Shown here piece by piece: positions 10,331 through 20,823 of a stretch of DNA of 32,000 bases. Made by a program: the position numbers and the translations under genes. The stretch spans positions 48,179 through 80,178 of the forward strand of contig NZ_VFXM01000015.1 in the NCBI RefSeq assembly GCF_006519705.1, read 5' to 3'. Numbering within the stretch: position 1 is the first letter of the stretch; each line of letters begins with the position of its first letter. Origin of the DNA: Ornithinimicrobium kibberense (lineage in GTDB: Bacteria > Actinomycetota > Actinomycetes > Actinomycetales > Dermatophilaceae). The notes beneath the pieces are model-generated. The model ran no database searches. It was not told the origin of the DNA and was given only the letters and a program-made list of their open reading frames with translations.

Positions 10331-12852
10331 GCCCGACCACCTTCCTGGGGGTATGCGGTGCCGCCGGCAGGTCCGTCCGGCCCGGGGTCGTCCTGGTTGG
10401 GTGCGTCCTGCGTGAAGTGCGGCTGGGCGCTGTCCTCGGTGGGCGTGCTCCCGCCCTGCCGGTTGTCCTCGATCGCCCGCCAGACCCGTTCGGGGGTGCA
10501 GGGCATCTGGATGTCGTGGATGCCCATCGGCCGGACGGCGTCGACGACGGCGTTGACGACGGCCGGGGTGGAGGCGATGGCTCCCGCCTCGCCCACCCCC
10601 TTGGCGCCGAGGTCGTTGGTCGTGGCCGGGGAGACGGTCCGGTCGGTGACGAAGCTGATCGTGTCCGCCGAGGTGGGCAGGGTGTAGTCGACGAACGAGC
10701 CGGACACCAGCGTGCCCTGGTCGTCGTAGACGGCCTCCTCCCACAGCGCCTGGGCGATGCCCTGGACGAGGCCGCCGTGGATCTGCCCGTCGACGATGAG
10801 CGGGTTGACCACGTTGCCGACGTCGTCGACCGAGACGTAGGAACGCATCCGGCTCTGCCCGGTCTCGGTGTCGACCTCCATGGCGCACAGGTGGGTGCCG
10901 TGCGGGAAGGAGAAGTTCTCCGGGTCGAAGGTGGCGTCGGCGTCGAGGGTGGGCTCCATGCCGTCGGGCAGGTCGTGGGCGGTGAACACCTTGAGGGCGA
11001 GGTCGGTCAGGCCGATGCCCTCCTGGTCGTCGCCGGCCCCGCGGACCCGGAACCTGCCGGAGGAGAACTCCAGGTCGTCGACGTTGGCCTCCAGCAGGTG
11101 CGCCGCGAGGGGCTTGGCCTTCTCGACCACCCGCTGGGCCGCCTGGACGACGGCCTGGCCGCCGACGACCAGCGAGCGCGACCCGTAGGTGTCCAGCCCG
11201 CGGGGGCTGACCTGGGTGTCCCCGTGCAGGACCTCGACGTCCTCGAACGGCACGCCGAGCTGGTCGGCCACGATCTGGCTCCAGGCGGTCTCGTGCCCCT
11301 GGCCGTGGGCCGAGGCTCCGGTGACGACCTCGACCTTGCCGCTGGGCAGCATCCGCACCGAGGCGCTCTCCCAGCCCCCGGCGCCGTAGTCGAGGGAGCC
11401 CAGGACCCGGGAGGGTGCCAGGCCGCACATCTCGGTGAAGGTGGACACGCCGATGCCCAGCTGGACCCGGTCGCCGCTCTCCCGGCGACGGGCCTGCTCG
11501 GCCCGCAGCTCGTCATACCCGAAGAGCTCCTTGGCCCGGGTGGTGGCGGCCTCGTAGTTGCCGGAGTCGTACTCCAGCCCGCAGACGGAGGTGAACGGGA
11601 ACTCCTCGTGGGTGATCCAGTTCTGCTCGCGCACCTCGAGCGGGTCGCGTCCCAGCTCGGCGGCCAGCTCGTCCATGAGCCGCTCGATCGCGAAGGTCGC
11701 CTCGGGGCGGCCGGCACCGCGGTAGGCGTCGGTCCACGTCTTGTTGGTGAAGACGTTGGTGCAGGTGAAGTGGTAGGCGGGGAACTTGTAGATGGCGTTG
11801 TACATGAAGGCCCCGAGGATGGGCACGCCGGGCGTGACCAGGCCCAGGTAGGCGCCCATGTCGGCGAGCAGCTCGACCTTGAGGCCGGTGACCGTGCCGT
11901 CCTTGCGGGCCGCGAGGGTGAGCTTCTGCCACTGGTCACGGCCGTGGTGGCCGGACAGCAGCGACTCGCTGCGGGTCTCGGTCCACTTGCACGGGCGGCC
12001 GGTGCGGCGGGCCGCGAGGAAGGTGATGATCTCCTCGGGGGTGACCTGCAGCTTGCCGCCGAACCCGCCGCCGACGTCGGGCGCGATGACCCGGACCTTG
12101 GACTCCGGCACGCCGAGGGTGAGGGCGAGCATGAGGCGCAGGATGTGCGGCACCTGGGTGGCGGACCACATGACGAACTGCTCGCCGGTGGGGTCGACGA
12201 CGACCGAGCGGGGTTCCATGAACGCCGGGATGAGGCGCTGCTGGCGGTACTCCCGCTCGATGAGCACCTCGGCGTCGCGGATGGCGGCCTCCACGTCCTC
12301 GCCGGTCCCGGCCTCGGCCGAGTCGAAGGTCCAGGTGGCCGACCGGTTGGTGCCCAGGTCGGGGTGGGCCAGGACGTCGTCGCCGGCGGACTGCCGCAGG
12401 TCGAGGGCGGCGGGCAGCTCCTCGTAGTCCACGTCGACCAGCTCGGCGGCGTCCCGGGCTGCGGCCGCGGTGCGGGCCACGACGACCGCCACGATCTCGC
12501 CCGCGAAGGCGACGCGGTCGACGGCGATCGCCGGGTGCGGGGGGGCCTTCTGGTCGGGGGTGATCGGCCAGGCGGTGGGCAGGGATCCCTGGATCTCCTT
12601 GACGTCCTCGCCGGTGATCACGGCGACGACGTTGGGCGAGGACTCGGCGGCGCCGGCGTCGATGCCGGTGATCCGGGCGTGGGCGTAGGGGCTGCGCACC
12701 ATGGACAGGTGCAGCATCCCCTGCAGCTGCATGTTGTCGGTCCACCTGGTGCGGCCGGTGATGAGGCGCTGGTCCTCCTTGCGGCGGCGGTCCCGGCCTA
12801 CCTCCCCCTGGGGGGTGTCCTGCTCGGCGGTGCGGTCGTCGGTGACGGTCAT
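10327..12852 (-). CDS. coxL: Molybdopterin-dependent hydroxylase large subunit, form-II CoxL-like
   Basis: 841 aa of aldehyde oxidase/xanthine dehydrogenase a/b-hammerhead and Mo-binding sequence. The active-site loop reads AYRGAGR (11707-11727), the form-II signature rather than AYxCSFR. Confidence 0.92.
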
Positions 12853-13343
12853 GCCTGCTCACTCCCCTGGGTCGCGGTGGCGGATCCGGAGCCGGCGGCC
12901 TGCAGCACGGCCTTGACGATGTTGTGGTAGCCGGTGCAGCGGCACAGGTTGCCCTCCATGTGCTGGCGGACGTGCTCCTCGTCGGGGTTCGGGTTCTCGG
13001 CGAGGAGATCGGTCGCCTGCATGATCATCCCGGGGGTGCAGAAGCCGCACTGCAGGGCGTGGCAGTCGCGGAACGCCTCCTGTACGGGGCTGAGCTGCTC
13101 GCCGTCGGCCAGGCCCTCGATCGTGGTCACGGTCCGCCCGTCGGCCTGGACGGCGAGCACGTTGCAGGACTTCACGCTGCGGCCGTCGAGGTGCACGGTG
13201 CAGGCGCCGCAGCTGCTCGTGTCGCAGCCGACGACCGTGCCGGTCTTGCCGAGCTGTTCTCGCAGGTAGTGGACCAGGAGCGTTCGGGGCTCGACGTCGT
13301 CGGTGTACTTCATGCCGTCGACCGTCACGGAGATCTGGGTCAT
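12849..13343 (-). CDS. coxS: [2Fe-2S]-binding small subunit (CoxS-like)
   Basis: '[12 protein letters not shown]' and '[10 protein letters not shown]...CRCTGY' are the two 2Fe-2S motifs. Start placed at ATG 13343, preceded by CTGGAGGACGC (SD). The stop overlaps the coxL start (ATGA). Confidence 0.92.
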
Positions 13344-13440
13344 GCGTCCTCCAGGTGGGAACCGGACTTCGTTGTCCCGCCCGATCCTGCCCTGTCGCAC
13401 GTTCCGCCGCAATACCTCCGACGGTCCGGTGCCGGCGATG

Positions 13441-13614
13441 TCAGAAGAGGACGAAGCAACTGATCCCGAAGAGGATGAGGAAGGCGAAGAGCACGAAGCT
13501 CATGAAGTTGTTCTCCGCCGCGCTCGGCGCCCGGTCCTCCGGGACCCAGTCGTCGACCGCGGTGGCCGCAGGTCGCCGGGCGTGGGCGCTCCCCTGGTCG
13601 TGCGTGGTTCTCAC
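13441..13614 (-). CDS. Small tail-anchored membrane protein (57 aa), Phe-rich C-terminal TM helix
   Basis: [61 protein letters not shown] 13614 overlaps the upstream stop (GTGA, 13611-13614). GC3 is about 90% in this frame, whereas the antisense frame is rich in A/T-ending codons. Alternative internal start at ATG 13503 (20 aa) with GGAG about 9 nt upstream. Confidence 0.5.
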
Positions 13615-14066
13615 AGCACCGCTCCTATCCGGTCCAGCTCGGTCATGGTGGCGACGGCCAGGATCACGAGGACGACCGTGATGAAGGCCGTGTAGGTCCA
13701 GCGGTAGGCGTGGTCGGCCCGCCAGAAGCGTCGCAGGCTGAGCACGCCGGTGACGGCCGCGACGGCGCACAGGGCCAGTCCGATGGGTGCGGCCACCCAG
13801 CCGGCCAGGCTCAGGACCGGCAGCAGGACCGGCACGGCGACGTAGGTGACGACGCAGCGCACGGCGGAGACGACGACCGACACCCGGAAGGCGCGGTGCG
13901 CACCCTGGCCGGACCGGCGGTCGACCCCCTCGATGCCCAGGACCCGTCGCATCCACCGGTCCGCGGCACCGTCCGACCTGTGACCGGCGCCCTCGGGGGG
14001 CCGTCGTCCGGCGTCGGCGTCCGCCGGGGCGAGGGGGCTGGCCTGCGCCTGCGCCTGCGTGGTCAT
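13611..14066 (-). CDS. Hypothetical integral membrane protein (151 aa, about 3 TM)
   Basis: Low-complexity N-terminus, then hydrophobic segments VSVVVSAVRCVVTYVAVPVLLPVLSLAGWVAAPIGLALCAVAAVTGVL and WTYTAFITVVLVILAVA. GC3 is high. ATGA overlap with the upstream gene (14063-14066). Confidence 0.65.
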   Translation of the reverse strand: MTTQAQAQASPLAPADADAGRRPPEGAGHRSDGAADRWMRRVLGIEGVDRRSGQGAHRAFRVSVVVSAVRCVVTYVAVPVLLPVLSLAGWVAAPIGLALCAVAAVTGVLSLRRFWRADHAYRWTYTAFITVVLVILAVATMTELDRIGAVL

Positions 14067-14401
14067 CCTTCCTCCTCCTCGACCGGGCTCGTGCGCGGGT
14101 TGCGCATCAGCTGCCGGGCCCCGAGGCCCACGGACACCAGGCCCACGCCGCCGACGAGGATGCCGATGAAGAAGCCCCAGTAGAGGGGGTCCATCCTGGA
14201 GGCGGGGTCCTCGTTGCCCATCGTGCTGCCGATCAGGATGCCGAAGAAGGGGGCCAGCACGGCCAGGATGGCCCCACCGACCGCACGCCAGAATCCGGGT
14301 GGCGTGGGTTCGAGCCGCACCGGGCGTCCGGGAGGCGGAGGGGTGTCGTCCTCGACGACCTCCGCGTCGTCGCGCCGGGTGGTGGGGTGGGTGTCGGTCA
14401 T
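14063..14401 (-). CDS. Hypothetical membrane protein (112 aa, 2 TM)
   Basis: MTDTHPTTRRDDAEVVEDD...FWRAVGGAILAVLAPFFGILIGS...LYWGFFIGILVGGVGLVSVGLG...VEEEEG. ATG 14401 overlaps the SPFH stop (ATGA, 14398-14401). It is the C-terminal part of a composite track ORF. Confidence 0.65.
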   Translation of the reverse strand: MTDTHPTTRRDDAEVVEDDTPPPPGRPVRLEPTPPGFWRAVGGAILAVLAPFFGILIGSTMGNEDPASRMDPLYWGFFIGILVGGVGLVSVGLGARQLMRNPRTSPVEEEEG

Positions 14402-15276
14402 CGGGATCGCCCTTCTGCGCGGTCGTCGGCCACGGCCATGCCGTTCGTCGCCGAGGGGACGCGTGCTGCCGACGCCTCGCGTCCGTGGTCGGGGGTGCGG
14501 GTCTGCGCGGTGGGCGCGACCCTGTCCAGCGCGCCCAGCAGGGGCCCGACGATGTCCATCGGCAGCGGGAAGACCACCGTGGAGTTCTGGTCGGCGCCGA
14601 GCTCGAGCAGCGTCTGCAGGTAGCGCAGCTGCAGCGCCGCGGGCGCCTCGCTGAGGGTCCGCGCCGCGTCGCGCAGCTCCTCGGAGGCCTCGAGCTCGCC
14701 GTGCGCGCTGATGACCTTGGCCCGGCGCTCGCGCTCGGCCTCGGCCTGGCGGGCCATCGCCCGCTGCATCATCTCGGGGATCTCCACGTCCTTGATCTCG
14801 ACCACGTCGACGTCGACGCCCCACGGCACGGCCTGGTGGGCGATCGAGCGGTAGAGGTCCTCGTTGAGGTCGGCGCGGTGGGCCAGGAGGGTGTCCAGGT
14901 CCGCTCGCCCGACCACCGAGCGCAGGGTGGTCTGGGCGAACTGGGAGGTGGCGACCGCGTGGTTCTCCACCGCCATCACCGACCGCACCGGGTCGGACAC
15001 CTTGAACATCACCACGGCGTTGACCCGGGCGGTCACGTTGTCGCGGGTGATGACCTCCTGCGGCGGGATGGTCAGGGTCACCACCCGCTGGTCCACCCGC
15101 ACCGACCGGTCGAGGAACGGCAGCATGAGCACCAGGCCGGGCCCGAGCGCGCCGCGCAGCCGGCCGAGACGGAAGACGACCAGCCGCTCGTACTCGCGCA
15201 CCACCTTCAGCGAGGCGACGAGCAGCGCCAGCAGGACGCCGGCCACCACGAGGGCAGCCACCACCGAGCTAGGCAT
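14398..15276 (-). CDS. SPFH/Band-7 (prokaryotic stomatin / slipin) family protein
   Basis: N-terminal TM helix, then 'LKVVREYERLVVFRLGRL...PPQEVITRDNV...VEIKDVEIPEMMQRAMARQAEAERERRAKVISAHGELEAS...LQLRYLQTL', the classical p-stomatin sequence. Start placed at ATG 15276, preceded by GGAAGGAGG. The upstream extension to 15357 has poor GC3. Confidence 0.9.
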   Translation of the reverse strand: MPSSVVAALVVAGVLLALLVASLKVVREYERLVVFRLGRLRGALGPGLVLMLPFLDRSVRVDQRVVTLTIPPQEVITRDNVTARVNAVVMFKVSDPVRSVMAVENHAVATSQFAQTTLRSVVGRADLDTLLAHRADLNEDLYRSIAHQAVPWGVDVDVVEIKDVEIPEMMQRAMARQAEAERERRAKVISAHGELEASEELRDAARTLSEAPAALQLRYLQTLLELGADQNSTVVFPLPMDIVGPLLGALDRVAPTAQTRTPDHGREASAARVPSATNGMAVADDRAEGRSR

Positions 15277-15973
15277 TCTCCTGCGCCTCCTTCCGGTCCG
15301 AGGCGTACCGGGTGCGTCCGAGCACGACCGGCACGGGGTCCGTGTGCGGGTCGGCACGACGGTCGGAGGCGTAGGTCGTCCGCCGGCGACGGACCGCCTC
15401 GACCGCCTGCGCCCGCTCCTCGAGGTTCTCGTCCAAGGACCGGAAGAGCACCCCCTCGGGGTCCACCGGGCTGTTGCGCAGGTGCGACCACAGCGGTATG
15501 CCCCCGAGCGCGACGAGCAGGCCGGTGCCCAGGAGGAGGACCTGGCTCGTCCAGTGCTCGACGGTGAAGCTGGTGACCACGGGGAAGACGGCGGCCAGAA
15601 CGGCGACGGCGCAGGCGATGCCCCGGTGGAACCGGGCCGACTCCGAGGATGGCCAGGCGTCGACCGCCCGCCCCAGCTCCCGGCCGTCGTCCGTGGTCGT
15701 GCAGCTGTCCTTCACGGGGCAGGAGTTGCAGACGCTGGGACTGCCGCGGTAGCGCATGACCCGGTTCTCCGGGTCGAAGGACTGCGGCCACAGCCACTGG
15801 TCCTCGGGGCACAGCCACGCGTCGTGGTCCTCGTGGTAGGTGAACCCGCGCGTCTGGTGCTCGTCGTTGGCGGTGTGCACCCGCCGGGCGAGCAGGTCGA
15901 TCCCGTAGGCGACGAGCAGCAGCACGACGGCATACCCGGCGCCCAGCCACCCGGGCAGCTCGACCGCGGTCAC
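15269..15973 (-). CDS. Hypothetical 3-TM membrane protein with a cytoplasmic 4-Cys module (C-x26-C-x2-C-x5-C)
   Basis: 234 aa. TM1 is WLGAGYAVVLLLVAYGIDLLA. It is followed by FTYHEDHDAWLCPEDQW...RVMRYRGSPSVCNSCPVKDSCTTT, then two further TM helices and an Arg-rich tail with two YASDR[RK] motifs. The GTG start overlaps the qNOR stop (GTGA, 15970-15973). GC3 is high. Confidence 0.7.
   Translation of the reverse strand: MTAVELPGWLGAGYAVVLLLVAYGIDLLARRVHTANDEHQTRGFTYHEDHDAWLCPEDQWLWPQSFDPENRVMRYRGSPSVCNSCPVKDSCTTTDDGRELGRAVDAWPSSESARFHRGIACAVAVLAAVFPVVTSFTVEHWTSQVLLLGTGLLVALGGIPLWSHLRNSPVDPEGVLFRSLDENLEERAQAVEAVRRRRTTYASDRRADPHTDPVPVVLGRTRYASDRKEAQENA
15293..15311 (-). repeat. 19-nt repeat copy B (CCGGTCCGAGGCGTACCGG on the plus strand), encoding ...RYASDR...
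   Basis: 18/19 identical to 16003-16021. It lies in the 3' tail of the 4-Cys membrane protein gene. Confidence 0.8.
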
Positions 15974-18417
15974 GACGGCCTCCCCGGCCCCTCGTCACGG
16001 CGCCGGTCCGAGGCATACCGGCTCGGGGGCACCGACGTCGCGTCGTCGCCGGCGGCCGAGGGGGCGACCGGGCTGGCGACCACCGCCCCGCTCCGCCCCG
16101 TGCGGTCCTCGTGCGCCTCGGCGCTCTCCACGACGAAGAGGGTCTCCGGCTCCATCCGGGTGACCGTGGCCCGCACGCCGTGCCGGACGCCGAGCCAGGT
16201 GATCCAGATGAACGGCAGGATGCCACCGAGGAGGAAGATCACGTCGCCGGGCATCCGCATCCACTCCAGGGCCACGTTGCCGGGCTGGGTGATGTAGGCC
16301 AGGGTGCGGGCCTCGTAGTAGCCCTGGTTGACCGAGGCCCACAGCTGCATGGTGCCCAGCGGCAGGAGGGTGGCGAACATCATCCAGGCCAGACCGATGT
16401 TCAGCGACCAGAACGACAACCGGGCCAGCCGGTCGGGCCAGCGCTGCGGAGGGATGATGTAGCGCAGCGCGAACAGCGCCAGCCCGACGGCCATCATCCC
16501 GTAGACGCCCATCATGGCGCCGTGCGCATGGTTGGCGGTCAGGGCCGTGCCGATCTGGTAGTAGGACACGATCGGCAGGTTCACGAGGAAGCCGAAGACG
16601 CCGGCGCCCAGGAAGTTCCAGAAGCCCACGGCGACCAGGAACATGACCGCCCACCGGTGGGGGAAGGGCGCGCTGGAGCGCGACTCCTGCCGGGCGCCGA
16701 GCTGCAGGAACGTCCAGGCCTCGATGGTCAGGAAGGTGAGCGGGATGACCTCCAGGGCCGAGAAGACCGCACCGAGGGCCATGTGCTCGACCGGGGTGCC
16801 GGAGAAGTACAGGTGGTGCATGGTGCCGATGACGCCGCCGGCCGAGTAGAGGATCACGTCCAGGAAGATGATCTGGATCGCGATCTTGCGGCGCACCACG
16901 CCGAGCATGACGAACAGGTAGGCGACCATCACGGTGGTGAACAGCTCCAGGAAGTCCTCCACCCACAGGTGCACCACCCAGAAGCGCCAGAACTCGGCGA
17001 CGGTCAGGTGCACCGTGTTCATCGCCAGCAGGCCCACGGCGTAGAAGGCGGGGATCGCCAGCGCCGCGTAGGCGAACAGCCAGGGCATGTTGAACTTGGA
17101 CTCGGTCCGCAGCCGGGACCGGATCGCCCGCACGATGATGAGGAACCACAGGAACAGCCCGATCACCAGGAGGATCTGGAAGAACCTGGGCAGGTCCAGG
17201 TACTCCCACTGCTGGGAGAAGAAGATCGACCCCTCCGCCCAGCGGGGGCCGTAGATGCTGATGGCGGTGCCGCCGAACATCCCCACCACCACGAGCGCCA
17301 GGGCGCCCAGCAGCCCGTAGGACAGGTAGTGCTGGCCCTTGGGCTCGCGGCCCGAGATGATCGGGGCGAGGAAGATCGCCGCGGCCAGGAAGGCCGCGGC
17401 CGTCCACAGCAGGGACAGCTGCACGTGCCAGGTCCGGGCGAGGTTGAACGGGAAGATCTGGGCCAGGTCGAAGCCGAAGAAGCCTTCGAGCTCGACGCGG
17501 TAGTGCTCGACGGAGGCGCCGACGGTGGCCTGGATGAGGAACAGGATGGACACCACCAGGAAGAACCACGCCGTGGACTTCTGCGCCTTGGTGATCCCCA
17601 CCTCCCCGGGCTGCAGGAAGCGCAGGCTGGTGGTGTCGTTGCCCTTCCAGCCCAGCTTGGCGCTCCACCGGCCGTAGACGGCGAACAGGATGCCCAGGCC
17701 GGCCAGCAGCGCGACCAGGGAGATGCCCGACCAGACGAGGATGTCGGCGGTGGGTTGGTTGTTCACGCGGGGCTCGGGCGGCCAGTTGTTGGTGTAGGAG
17801 TAGTCCAGCCCTGGTCGTTCGGCGGCGCTCGCCCAGGCCGTCCACGCGTAGAACGCGGTGAGGTCGTGGATGTGCTCGGGGTCGGTGATCTTGTCCGGGA
17901 CCAGCCCGTGCCGGGTCGTCGGGTCGCCGAAGAAGTCGGCGTAGTGCTCGGTGATCGCGTCGAAGGCGGAGACCTGCTCGGGGGTGAGGACGAGGACGCC
18001 GCTGTCCTCGTCGTACCGGTTGGTCCGTTGCATCTCGGCCGTGGCGGCCTGCGGGTCCTGCACACCCGCCTGCTCGAGCCGCTCGAGGATGTGCTCGCTG
18101 CTGAGCCGAAGGTACTCGGCGGTGTAGTCCGGGCCGAGATAGGCACCGTGGCCGACGATCGAGCCGTACTGCTGCAGACCGCGGGTCAGGAAGATGTTCT
18201 GGCCGTTGGTGATCTCCTCGCCGGTGAAGACGACCTCGCCCTCCTGGCTGACCACCTCCTGGGGCAGCGGCATGGAGGCGGTGTAGGTCCGGTAGGCCAG
18301 CACCCCCATCACGAAGAAGCCGAAGATGAAGACCAGGGCGACCCCCTGCACCCATCCCTTCGAGATGGCCAGCTCGTTGCGTCCTCGCTGCCCGGCCTGC
18401 TGATCGATGGTCACCAT
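15970..18417 (-). CDS. norZ: Quinol-dependent nitric oxide reductase (qNOR, single-subunit NorB/NorZ type)
   Basis: 815 aa. The long N-terminal extension lacks a CxxCH heme-c motif ('GQNIFLTRGLQQYGSIVGHGAYLGPDYTAEYL'). The heme-copper-oxidase-like core has His ligand motifs 'WVVHLWVE', 'GTMHHLYFSG' and 'ANHAHGAMMGVYG'. Start placed at ATG 18417, because the upstream in-frame stretch has poor GC3. Confidence 0.9.
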   Translation of the reverse strand: MVTIDQQAGQRGRNELAISKGWVQGVALVFIFGFFVMGVLAYRTYTASMPLPQEVVSQEGEVVFTGEEITNGQNIFLTRGLQQYGSIVGHGAYLGPDYTAEYLRLSSEHILERLEQAGVQDPQAATAEMQRTNRYDEDSGVLVLTPEQVSAFDAITEHYADFFGDPTTRHGLVPDKITDPEHIHDLTAFYAWTAWASAAERPGLDYSYTNNWPPEPRVNNQPTADILVWSGISLVALLAGLGILFAVYGRWSAKLGWKGNDTTSLRFLQPGEVGITKAQKSTAWFFLVVSILFLIQATVGASVEHYRVELEGFFGFDLAQIFPFNLARTWHVQLSLLWTAAAFLAAAIFLAPIISGREPKGQHYLSYGLLGALALVVVGMFGGTAISIYGPRWAEGSIFFSQQWEYLDLPRFFQILLVIGLFLWFLIIVRAIRSRLRTESKFNMPWLFAYAALAIPAFYAVGLLAMNTVHLTVAEFWRFWVVHLWVEDFLELFTTVMVAYLFVMLGVVRRKIAIQIIFLDVILYSAGGVIGTMHHLYFSGTPVEHMALGAVFSALEVIPLTFLTIEAWTFLQLGARQESRSSAPFPHRWAVMFLVAVGFWNFLGAGVFGFLVNLPIVSYYQIGTALTANHAHGAMMGVYGMMAVGLALFALRYIIPPQRWPDRLARLSFWSLNIGLAWMMFATLLPLGTMQLWASVNQGYYEARTLAYITQPGNVALEWMRMPGDVIFLLGGILPFIWITWLGVRHGVRATVTRMEPETLFVVESAEAHEDRTGRSGAVVASPVAPSAAGDDATSVPPSRYASDRRRDEGPGRPS
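16003..16021 (-). repeat. 19-nt repeat copy A (CCGGTCCGAGGCATACCGG on the plus strand), encoding ...RYASDR...
   Basis: 18/19 identical to 15293-15311. It lies in the 3' tail of the qNOR gene. Confidence 0.8.
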
Positions 18418-18432
18418 GGTAGGAACCGCCCC

Positions 18433-18463
18433 GTCCTCACGTGGTCGAGGACAACCCGTCCTC
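18433..18463 (-). promoter_or_regulatory. Three-arm alternative hairpin in the qNOR leader (GAGGAC / GUCCUC / GAGGAC)
   Basis: mRNA sense: GAGGAC-GGGUU-GUCCUC-GACCACGU-GAGGAC, ending 15 nt before AUG 18417. The central arm can pair with either flank. Any function is inferred. Confidence 0.4.
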
Positions 18464-18473
18464 GTCGACATCA

Positions 18474-18538
18474 AAAGGTGCAATGACCCGGGACCATAGC
18501 CTCCGAGGGAGGTCCGTGGGGCGATTCCGGGCACCTTT
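18474..18538. promoter_or_regulatory. 8-bp inverted repeat AAAGGTGC / GCACCTTT (49-nt spacer) enclosing the CCTCC-GAG-GGAGG hairpin
   Basis: Arms at 18474-18481 and 18531-18538; inner hairpin at 18500-18512. It sits in the only sizeable low-GC intergenic gap of the locus (xdhC stop to qNOR start). Statistical significance is marginal. Confidence 0.3.
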
Positions 18539-18563
18539 CGGTCAAATAGCCGGAAACCCTTAC

Positions 18564-19718
18564 CTAGTCTTTACCTTCGGGACCTTCGTGGCCGGTGTGG
18601 ATCGGGCCCGTCGTCGTCGAGAGCGGCTCGCCGCCCCCGCCCCACCGGGTCGCGATGATCTCCGCCGCGATCGAGACGGCCGTCTCCTCGGGGGTGCGTG
18701 CGCCCAGGTCGAGGCCGACCGGGCTGCGCAGGCGCGCCAGCTGGTCCTCGGTGAGACCGGACTCGCGCAGGCGGGCCAGCCGGTCCTCGTGGGTGCGGCG
18801 GGACCCCATCGCGCCGACGTAGGCCAGCTCGGGGGCGTCGGGCCCGAGCAGGGCCTCCAGCAGGGGCACGTCGAACTTCGGGTCGTGGGTCAGCACGCAG
18901 GCCACCGTCCGGGGGTCGAGCGCGGCCTGGGCGACCTGCTCCTCCACGTACCGGTGGGGCCAGGAGACCACGACCTCGTCGGCCTCGGGGAACCGGCTGG
19001 CCGTGGCGAAGACCGGACGGGCGTCGCAGACCGTCACCCGGTAGCCCAGGAAGGTCCCCACCCGGGCGACGGCGGCCGCGAAGTCGATCGCGCCGAAGAC
19101 GAGCATCCGCGGCCGGGGCGCGTAGGAGCTGACGAAGACCCGCATACCCTCACCCCGCCGCTGCCCGTCCGGCCCGTAGCCGAGGGTGGCGGTGCGCCCC
19201 TGGGCGAGCATGCCGCGGGCGTCGTCGAGGACGGCGGCGTCGGCCCGTGCGGAGCCGAGGGTGCCGGAGGACTCCGCCCCCTCCGGGCGGACGACCAGGT
19301 GCCGGCCCAGCAGGCCGGGGTCCGGGTGCTCCACGACCGTGGCCACGGCCACGGGGACCTCCGCCGCGATGTCCGCGGCGACCTCGGCCAGCTCCGGGAA
19401 GTCCTCGCGGCCGACCCGCTCGACGAAGACGTCGAGGATGCCGCCGCACGTCAGGCCGACGCCCATCGCCTCGTCGTCGGACACGCCGTACCGCTGCAGG
19501 ACGGGGGTGCCGGAGGCGATGACCTGCTGGCCCAGCTCGTAGACCGCTCCCTCGACGCATCCCCCGGAGACGGACCCGACGGCCTCACCGTCGACTCCGA
19601 CGAGCATCGCGGCACCCGGTTGGCGCGGGGCCGACTTCCACGTGCCGACGACGGTGGCGAGGGCCACCTGGTGACCCTCCTGCCACCATCCCAGCAGCCG
19701 GTCCAGGACCTCACGCAC
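18564..19718 (-). CDS. xdhC: XdhC/CoxI-family molybdenum-cofactor insertion accessory protein
   Basis: VREVLDRLLGWWQEGHQVALATVVGTWKSAPRQPGAAMLV...GGCVEGAV (XdhC_CoxI N-domain) plus a Rossmann-like C-domain 'RMLVFGAIDFAAAVARVGTFLGYRVTVCDARP'. The GTG start overlaps the coxE end by 8 nt. Confidence 0.88.
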   Translation of the reverse strand: MREVLDRLLGWWQEGHQVALATVVGTWKSAPRQPGAAMLVGVDGEAVGSVSGGCVEGAVYELGQQVIASGTPVLQRYGVSDDEAMGVGLTCGGILDVFVERVGREDFPELAEVAADIAAEVPVAVATVVEHPDPGLLGRHLVVRPEGAESSGTLGSARADAAVLDDARGMLAQGRTATLGYGPDGQRRGEGMRVFVSSYAPRPRMLVFGAIDFAAAVARVGTFLGYRVTVCDARPVFATASRFPEADEVVVSWPHRYVEEQVAQAALDPRTVACVLTHDPKFDVPLLEALLGPDAPELAYVGAMGSRRTHEDRLARLRESGLTEDQLARLRSPVGLDLGARTPEETAVSIAAEIIATRWGGGGEPLSTTTGPIHTGHEGPEGKD

Positions 19719-20823
19719 GGGCGACCACCTCCAGCAGCTCCTCGAACGTCGCCAGCGTGTGGCCGGAGACGAAGTCGTCGACGTGCGGCAGCACCGCACG
19801 GATCCCCGACTGGACCGGGGCGTAGCCCTCCTTGCCGCGGTGGGGGTTGACCCAGACGACCCGGTGGGCCAGCGCCTGCAGCTGGCGCACCGCCTCGCCG
19901 AGCCGGGCCGGGTCCTGCCGCTCCCAGCCGTCGCTGACGATGACCACCACGGCGCCGCGGGCCGTCCCACGCCGGCCCCACCGGCGGACGAAGGCGTCGA
20001 GGGTCTCGCCCAGGCGGGTACCGCCGGACCAGTCGGGCACGGTCTCCCCGGCCGCCAGCAGCGCGCGGTCCGGGTCCCGCTCGCGCAGCGCCCGGGTGAC
20101 GTGGGTCAGCCGGGTGCCGAGGGTGAAGACCTCGGTGGTGCGGGGGGCCGCCTGCACCATGACGTGGGCCAGCCGCAGCAGGCTGTCCGCGTAGGGGGCC
20201 ATCGACCCGGAGACGTCCACCAGCACCACGACCGGCCGGGGGCGTGGTCGGCGCCGCCGGTGCCGGACCCGCACCGGCTCGCCCAGGTTGCGCAGCTGGG
20301 CGCGGACCGTCGCCCGGCCGTCGACCCCTCCGTGGTGGTGGGGGGTATGCCGTCGTCCCCGCCGCTGGGGCGACCGTGGCCGGAGCCGGGCGAACCGTCG
20401 GCGCAGGGCGGCCCGGTCGGTCGGCGAGAGCCCGGCGACGTCGCGGTGCCGTAGGACCTCCTCGGGGGAGGCAGCCACCCGCAGGACGGGCTGCTCCTGC
20501 CCGTCCACGCCTCCAAGCCCGGACTCGTCCAGCGGAGCCTGCACCGTCGTGACGGACGGCGTCTCCTGCCGGCTGATCGACCGCAGGGGGCGGCCGGCGA
20601 ACCAGGCGTTGAAGACGCGGTCGTAGGGCTCCACGTCCGCGTTGGAGGCCGTGAGCGTCCCGCGGCCGGCCCAGTAGACGGCATCCCGCCGGCCGAGGCC
20701 GACGGCGGCGCAGGCCTGGAGAAAGGTGCGCTCACGGTCGGCGGTCACGGGCAGGCCCGCTCCACGGCACGCCCGGGCGAAACCGAGCAGCACCTGGCCC
20801 ATGTCCCACCCGGTGTCGGTCAT
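19711..20823 (-). CDS. coxE: VWA domain-containing protein (CoxE-like)
   Basis: 'VVVLVDVSGSMAPY' is the MIDAS motif (DxSxS), with 'VVVIVSDGWERQD' also present, and the gene sits after the MoxR ATPase. ATG 20823 overlaps the coxD stop (ATGA). Confidence 0.85.
   Translation of the reverse strand: MTDTGWDMGQVLLGFARACRGAGLPVTADRERTFLQACAAVGLGRRDAVYWAGRGTLTASNADVEPYDRVFNAWFAGRPLRSISRQETPSVTTVQAPLDESGLGGVDGQEQPVLRVAASPEEVLRHRDVAGLSPTDRAALRRRFARLRPRSPQRRGRRHTPHHHGGVDGRATVRAQLRNLGEPVRVRHRRRRPRPRPVVVLVDVSGSMAPYADSLLRLAHVMVQAAPRTTEVFTLGTRLTHVTRALRERDPDRALLAAGETVPDWSGGTRLGETLDAFVRRWGRRGTARGAVVVIVSDGWERQDPARLGEAVRQLQALAHRVVWVNPHRGKEGYAPVQSGIRAVLPHVDDFVSGHTLATFEELLEVVARA

Follow-up and report, generated by a model that had tools for sequence, protein, structure and literature searches.

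A conserved tail motif of an actinobacterial nitric oxide reductase and its operon neighbour as a putative docking site for a common receptor

Why do two consecutive proteins of one bacterial operon carry the same six residues in their C-terminal tails? The question is raised by a stretch of 32,000 nucleotides from Ornithinimicrobium kibberense (contig NZ_VFXM01000015.1, positions 48,179 to 80,178, hereafter the window), in which the gene of a quinol-dependent nitric oxide reductase (qNOR) is followed by those of protein X, of an SPFH/stomatin-type protein and of a small membrane protein, P4. The original prediction, made from the letters of this DNA, had noticed the hexapeptide YASDR[RK] once in the qNOR tail and twice in that of X, and translation of the minus strand bears out all three copies. 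In the reading proposed here, a conserved short linear motif docks qNOR and X to a common receptor, the best candidate for which is the SPFH scaffold; the probability of this statement as a whole is put at about 0.5. Its parts differ in strength. That the hexapeptide is a functional peptide motif is very likely, that it docks to a common partner is somewhat favoured by the comparison of sequences, and that this partner is the SPFH protein is a tentative identification, a little below even odds. We infer all that is said here on function, docking and the choice of receptor included, from comparative sequence data.

Occurrence and conservation of the motif

All three copies belong to genuine coding frames of a single strand and fall within a span of less than 730 nt, 12-34 residues before a stop codon (Table 1); RRRTTYASDRRADP and PPSRYASDRRRDEG are examples of the tail peptides that bear them. 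When the whole 3,334,283-bp assembly (73% G+C) is scanned in all six frames, YASDR and the looser Y.SDR[RK] are each found at these three sites only, the numbers expected from composition being 0.35 and 2.9, respectively. The same confinement is seen in five other genomes (26 Mb in total, the largest a 9.5-Mb Actinoplanes genome), where all eight matches of the back-translated motif fall in qNOR-X loci and none elsewhere. These scans rule out a motif that is frequent throughout the proteome, and its occurrence is a real rather than a chance event.

Conservation extends to a large set of orthologues. X has more than 1000 homologues, and the C-terminal RRRT[ST]-YASDRR is nearly invariant in the best 120 of them; residues Y201, S203 and D204 of X show no variation among 22 diverse homologues and reach at least 90% conservation in a set of 121. 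Among 59 aligned qNORs, Y801, S803, D804 and R806 are each at least 90% conserved, while the flanking columns of the tail are variable, with the exception of a proximal MEPETLFV..EDRTG segment. The gene order qNOR-X-SPFH is found in 80 of 80 loci from named genomes, which include Mycobacterium, Mycolicibacterium, Tessaracoccus, Brachybacterium, Brevibacterium, Georgenia, Actinoplanes, Micromonospora, Nocardioides, Arthrobacter and Rhodococcus. In these loci, whose tails were extracted heuristically and which are not independent where genomes are related, 69 of 78 readable qNOR tails and 74 of 79 X tails retain the core Y.SD, and 58 and 48, respectively, have the strict hexapeptide. The motif is thus kept at the C-termini of both proteins across many genera of Actinomycetes, and its conservation across several orders rules out a recent local duplication without function.

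In its extended form the consensus is R-[ST]-[RST]-Y-[A>G,S,R,T,W]-S-D-R-[RK], after which the sequence becomes variable, acidic and rich in Pro. The fixed residues are Y, S, D and R; position 2 accepts A, G, S, T, R or W, and the flanks show no conservation, as in a short linear motif. Substitutions in 366 motif-like windows are few at the core positions: Asp is replaced by Glu 22 times, Tyr by Phe three times and Ser by Ala once, and Ser is never replaced by Thr. The distance from the motif to the stop codon ranges from 10 to 38 codons in qNOR and from 8 to 38 in X, a variability that rules out a peptide causing ribosome arrest or stalled termination at the stop/start overlaps of the operon.

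Selection on the peptide and its mobility between tails

Could the repeat nevertheless reside in the nucleic acid? The original prediction had reported that two copies share a 19-nt string at 18/19 identity, and that the third keeps the peptide with the synonymous codons TCC, CGT and CGT. Both observations are correct: the string CCGGTCCGAGGC[G/A]TACCGG is found at 15293-15311 and 16003-16021, two matches being reached in none of 100 shuffles. Since the shared string also has a CCGGT...ACCGG inverted end, it could be taken for a DNA or RNA element, such as a regulator site, a hairpin or a recent local duplication, with the peptide as a by-product. This explanation is extremely improbable, and the codon data refute a repeat element of this kind. 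Not only in the third copy but across 140 orthologous motif copies, all synonymous codons are used while the amino acids are fixed (TAC/TAT, GCC/GCG/GCA, TCC/TCG/TCA/TCT, GAC/GAT and all six Arg codons), and the motif is kept across orders without shared nucleotide similarity. When the qNOR and X copies of the same locus are compared, 2.23 of 5 codons are identical, against 2.07 of 5 for shuffled partners (p about 0.11), and four of five identical codons are reached in 7 of 48 loci by codon bias alone. As identity within a locus is close to that of shuffled partners, the 18/19-nt identity is explained as a product of codon bias; it is not evidence for gene conversion either.

The motif Ser is locked to TCN codons, AGY accounting for 2% as compared with 27% in the rest of the same genes, a near-absence that would be expected if Ser was never allowed to change. 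The free variation of synonymous codons argues for selection on the peptide and, as judged from these comparisons, the motif is maintained by purifying selection at that level. The earlier claim of such selection therefore stands on the codon variation of the 140 copies, while the 18/19-nt identity carries no information about it. Certain rare codons are enriched in the motif relative to the rest of the same genes (loci L009-L088), namely TAT (29% vs 10%), GAT (26% vs 15%), CGA (16% vs 6%) and AGG (10% vs 4%); this may reflect relaxed codon bias in the tails, or related genomes counted repeatedly. A constraint from the downstream Shine-Dalgarno sequence and start codon accounts only for the last residues of X (..ENA*, overlapping the ATG at 15276), the motifs lying 18-100 nt upstream.

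The tails that carry the motif are predicted to be flexible. Solved qNORs align to the window qNOR only as far as residue ~750 of 815, so that the last 65 residues form an extension without structural coverage, and a comparison of the tail with solved structures gave nothing meaningful (best E value 0.78). In AlphaFold2 models of moderate quality (mean predicted local distance difference test score, pLDDT, of 65 and 70), pLDDT falls below 50 in residues 776-815 of qNOR and in residues 201-207 and 215-234 of X, and both motif tails are predicted to be intrinsically disordered. The C-terminus of qNOR is probably cytoplasmic, given the 14 transmembrane helices and the cytoplasmic N-terminus expected from the known qNOR fold, and the Cys/His-rich loop and the tail of X would likewise lie on the positive-inside, cytoplasmic side. 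Conservation, exclusivity to the locus, predicted disorder and synonymous variation together strongly support the initial description of a short linear motif on Arg-rich, probably cytoplasmic tails of consecutive operon products.

The proximal part of the qNOR tail has a conservation of its own. In MEPETLFVVESAEAHEDRTG (16090-16160, minus strand, residues ~753-775), E758, L760 and V762 never vary and D771-G774 reach at least 90% conservation; the segment is modelled as a short strand and a helix, and a related form, EEPEDILFTE, also occurs in clades without the YxSDRR motif.

Duplication of the motif is recurrent. The second copy on X occurs only in the ~233-aa forms of the protein (Ornithinimicrobium, Brachybacterium and Brevibacterium), a single copy being found in the ~211-aa forms of most genera. 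Independent tandem duplications have arisen elsewhere, both copies then carrying the variant proper to the lineage: YWSD twice, in a congener that no longer has the motif on its qNOR tail, YSSDRR twice and YRSD twice.

The hexapeptide (motif A) also alternates with a second motif. Motif B, [FY]-x-[TS]-[RK]-W-G-[GS], of which DRFATRWGSF and DRYSTRWGGF are examples, is found on the X tails of Mycolicibacter (L211-L224), Arthrobacter (L084/L085), Rothia (L231/L236), one Georgenia and one congeneric genome, and also in Thermoleophilaceae, Frankiaceae and Cellulomonas modules. In Corynebacterium (L200-L210), both tails carry B immediately before A, here Y-x-S-D-[RK]-[RK]; the qNOR tail ends in ..TRTKWGGTYRSDRRNEEE* and the X tail contains ..DRYGSKYGKARYASDRRTAN.. 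In Rothia and Arthrobacter, the two are divided, with A on qNOR (SPYRSDRRKE* in Rothia) and B on X. Since A and B are combined on one tail or split between two, they can be regarded as movable modules able to sit on either tail, and peptides that dock to a single shared receptor, possibly a multivalent one, would be expected to show such a pattern of exchange.

Candidate receptors and rival functions

Docking to a common receptor is suggested by the presence of the peptide on two proteins of one operon, its repeated tandem duplication and its exchange or combination with motif B. In the mechanism proposed, Y-x-S-D-R-[RK], usually preceded by R-[ST]-[RST], would sit on the disordered cytoplasmic tails of qNOR and of the translationally coupled X and would dock both tails on one common, probably oligomeric, receptor at the cytoplasmic face of the membrane. 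The SPFH/stomatin scaffold encoded just downstream would then gather qNOR and X in one scaffolded assembly. Of 25 congeneric genomes, 8 have qNOR and the same 8 have X, indicating an accessory module that moves as a whole, and this favours a receptor encoded within the module itself.

The distribution of the SPFH gene is consistent with this role. The X family comprises 1632 representative clusters at E <= 1e-3, only a handful of which have motif A. In Rubrobacteria and most Thermoleophilia, the qNOR-X pair is fixed but has neither an SPFH gene beside it nor motif A or B, the tails ending in lineage-specific sequences such as GYRKxK or GERSGPAP, and pairs without SPFH in Solirubrobacterales likewise lack both motifs; the persistence of the pair in Rubrobacteria indicates that the motifs are not needed for qNOR-X pairing itself. 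Among 200 evaluable loci, SPFH occurs together with motif A or B in 124, and both are absent from 61. SPFH is present without a motif in 14, most of which carry B variants missed by the search pattern, and a motif is present without SPFH in one. All 80 motif-A-type loci have the SPFH gene. A second SPFH gene elsewhere in the genome has no motif-bearing neighbour.

Several observations weigh against docking to the SPFH protein. About six SPFH loci have no recognisable motif (L160, L164, L176, L184, L244 and the frameshifted L058). The state of the SPFH gene changes only about four times on the X-core tree, leaving 2-4 independent contrasts, and phylogenetically corrected tests, whether they set SPFH against motif or the X copy against the qNOR copy, give no significance with so few contrasts, for which a sign test cannot reach it. 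Within the main clade, the distribution of P4 follows motif A about as closely as that of SPFH, and a universally conserved host factor of Actinomycetes might serve as receptor instead. Moreover, nine qNOR tails lack the motif while X retains it, which implies that the qNOR copy is dispensable in some lineages. The original suggestion that the tails dock to the SPFH scaffold thus keeps the support of the loci where SPFH is missing together with both motifs, and is limited by the number of independent contrasts. The nine losses are found in L021, L054, L055, L057, L065, L066, L074, L075 and L088; in seven of them X carries YRSD, with Arg at position 2, and three YRSD lineages retain the qNOR motif.

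The motif might instead dock to another partner, such as P4, a qNOR dimer (through its cytoplasmic face), the Cys-rich X loop or a host protein conserved in Actinomycetes. P4 is the alternative candidate, with its conserved cytoplasmic PPGRPVRLxPTPPGFW segment and its acidic N-terminus: it is present in 77 of 80 motif-A-type loci and in none of 80 distant-clade loci, including distant modules with SPFH, and in an accessory, mobile module a self-contained receptor is plausible. However, no P4 is detectable in Corynebacterium modules, which have motif A on both tails together with SPFH, and P4 is retained in modules of Arthrobacter and Georgenia where motif A is gone from the X tail. P4 is thus not a perfect correlate of the motif. 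As for a contact between qNOR and X, the two are paired in Rubrobacteria without any motif, so that no motif is required for the contact as such, and the X tail is not docked on its own loop in the AlphaFold2 model, although this loop is itself poorly modelled (pLDDT 32-45). Another partner altogether is an unlikely, if serious, alternative.

The original prediction had also left room for a modification site and a degron. A site of regulatory modification, for instance of Ser or Tyr phosphorylation, could switch qNOR and X jointly, in activity or in assembly; no positions vary less than Ser and Tyr, and the basic residues upstream and the Asp after Ser resemble kinase consensus contexts. Actinobacterial Ser/Thr kinases, however, mostly target Thr, which never replaces the motif Ser in the windows counted above, and Tyr gives way to Phe in three of them. 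The conserved module contains no kinase or phosphatase gene, and motif B, which has no requirement for Ser or Tyr, shows the same distribution. Modification is thus an improbable explanation of the motif.

Coordinated turnover of qNOR and X through a degron or adaptor-binding tag, for example by FtsH modulated by SPFH proteins of the HflK/C type, is slightly less probable still. Membrane AAA+ proteases require long unstructured cytoplasmic tails to begin degradation, and the neighbouring SPFH protein is weakly similar to HflK/HflC profiles. Degrons of the ssrA/ClpX type lie at the extreme C-terminus and have hydrophobic last residues. In the tails considered here, by contrast, the Tyr stands 8-38 residues from the C-terminus at a varying distance, with acidic and Pro-rich variable sequence after it, and the motif is charged, not hydrophobic, unlike terminal tags of the ssrA/ClpX or LpxC type; a terminal ssrA/ClpX-type degron is excluded by this internal, variable position and by the charge. 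Tandem duplication and motif shuffling fit the avidity of a scaffold better than a degradation signal, and there is no protease gene in the module, FtsH included. Among the functions first envisaged, the comparative data favour docking; the degron is weakened by the non-terminal position of the motif and the phosphosite by a Ser that is never Thr.

The qNOR module and its relation to known systems

The features of the module are collected in Table 1. The qNOR matches PF22085 (E 1e-53) and PF00115 (E 4e-52), as well as solved qNORs in the PDB (E 1e-145 to 3e-149), and has the hallmarks of its class: a fused NorC-like N-terminal domain without haem c, a NorB haem-copper core and 14 transmembrane helices, the latter in the AlphaFold2 model. 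X is modelled as an N-terminal transmembrane helix, a Cys/His-rich loop, two more transmembrane helices and a disordered tail; its loop matches profile positions 348-420 of NCBIfam NF033551, the Cys module of IS1182 transposases (E 1.2e-9). P4 has no family match in Pfam or NCBIfam; its N-terminal segment is strongly conserved in the related loci that have it. The qNOR stop codon overlaps the GTG start of X in GTGA, and the X stop codon overlaps the SPFH start in ATGCCTAG. In essentially all of the 207 loci with upstream sequence present, X comes immediately after qNOR.

Table 1. Position of the motif copies and of the genes of the qNOR module in the window
Feature	Position	Strand	Remarks
Motif copy, qNOR C-terminal tail (YASDRR, residues 801-806)	16000..16017	minus	PPSR-YASDRR-RDEGPGRPS*
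Motif copy 1, X tail (YASDRR; family-wide copy)	15356..15373	minus	RRRRTT-YASDRR-ADP
Motif copy 2, X tail (YASDRK; lineage-specific tandem duplication)	15290..15307	minus	GRTR-YASDRK-EAQENA*
qNOR C-terminal extension, residues 751-815, motif-bearing	15973..16167	minus	Conserved proximal MEPETLFV..EDRTG, then variable disordered linker (predicted)
qNOR (quinol-dependent nitric oxide reductase), 815 aa	15970..18417	minus	ATG at 18417; Pfam and PDB matches
Protein X, 234 aa	15269..15973	minus	NCBIfam NF033551 and AlphaFold2 model
SPFH/stomatin-type protein	14398..15276	minus	PF01145, E 4e-37; ATG at 15276
P4, 112-aa protein with two transmembrane helices	14063..14401	minus	Conserved cytoplasmic N-terminal PPGRPVRLxPTPPGFW

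The module (13400-18560) sits between coxS (12849-13412) and xdhC (18564-19970), inside a CoxSLM/XdhC-type molybdoenzyme cluster, and its position there, with only 8 of the 25 sampled members of the genus having it, suggests that an accessory block was inserted. Two copies of the module are found in Brevibacterium daeguense (L013, L015), on two contigs, and one genome (G295; L102, L110) has two qNOR-X pairs in tandem, ~1.7 kb apart. A module 90% identical to that of the window (L010) lies on a contig labelled as a metagenome-assembled genome of an 'Acidobacteria bacterium', which has probably been mis-binned from an Ornithinimicrobium-like actinobacterium. In one congeneric locus (L093, G024:C1:3486236-3488665), two TGA codons are flagged inside the qNOR match, apparently at its very end, and may represent simple read-through past the true stop; its qNOR tail has no motif and its X carries YWSDRK.

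Bacterial hub-docking peptides are the closest parallel to the tail motif. The beta-clamp motif QL[SD]LF, the SSB C-terminal tip DDDIPF and the FtsZ C-terminal peptide are, like it, short and conserved, located at or near the end of a disordered tail and flanked by variable linkers; they occur on different proteins that meet the same partner, and they tolerate duplication. They differ in having carriers throughout the genome and known receptors, whereas the tail motif is borne by two proteins of one operon and has a candidate receptor only. The exchange with a second motif between two carriers is a feature of the qNOR and X tails that sets them apart from these peptides. To our knowledge, sequence-defined docking motifs are far less catalogued in bacteria than in eukaryotes.

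Among SPFH systems, the flotillin FloA-NfeD is reported to retain its clients in microdomains of the membrane (Ukleja et al. 2024, PMC11222466). In FloA-NfeD and HflK/C-FtsH, as in the qNOR module, an SPFH oligomer is encoded with membrane proteins thought to be confined by it, but the qNOR module has no NfeD or FtsH gene: X, P4, P5 and a 57-aa open reading frame give no Pfam or NCBIfam match to NfeD, so that the locus is not an SPFH-NfeD operon. The flotillin clients reported so far are unfolded and no defined sequence is recognised in them (PMC11222466), in contrast to the defined motif on two dedicated clients proposed for the qNOR module. In the literature searched, no description was found of a defined client sequence motif for a bacterial SPFH protein, nor any paper describing the tail motif, and the full-text search returned no paper linking qNOR with SPFH or stomatin.

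Two further comparisons can be drawn. The accessory proteins of cNOR, NorQ/NorD and NorE, are likewise encoded by dedicated partner genes beside the catalytic subunit, but a sequence relationship is absent. The resemblance to the Cys module of IS1182-family transposases (NF033551) is restricted to the cytoplasmic loop of X, and the tail motif lies outside this transposase-like part; unlike the transposases, X has no DDE catalytic region and is a membrane protein with three transmembrane helices, fixed beside qNOR.

qNOR is usually regarded as a self-sufficient single subunit. Many bacteria detoxify nitric oxide with it, among them commensals and opportunists of the Actinomycetes (Corynebacterium, Mycobacterium and Rothia, for example). 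A motif confined to qNOR and its obligatory neighbour, with a distribution linked to the SPFH gene, points to an undescribed step of assembly or localisation, and its six residues offer a very small experimental handle on how bacterial SPFH proteins choose their clients. A more far-reaching proposal, doubtful at present, is that motifs A and B form an interchangeable address code by which a dedicated SPFH/stomatin cage would recognise and enclose qNOR and X. If true, a prokaryotic SPFH scaffold would for the first time have a client-recognition code defined by sequence, and the qNOR of Actinomycetes would work within a scaffolded multi-protein assembly.

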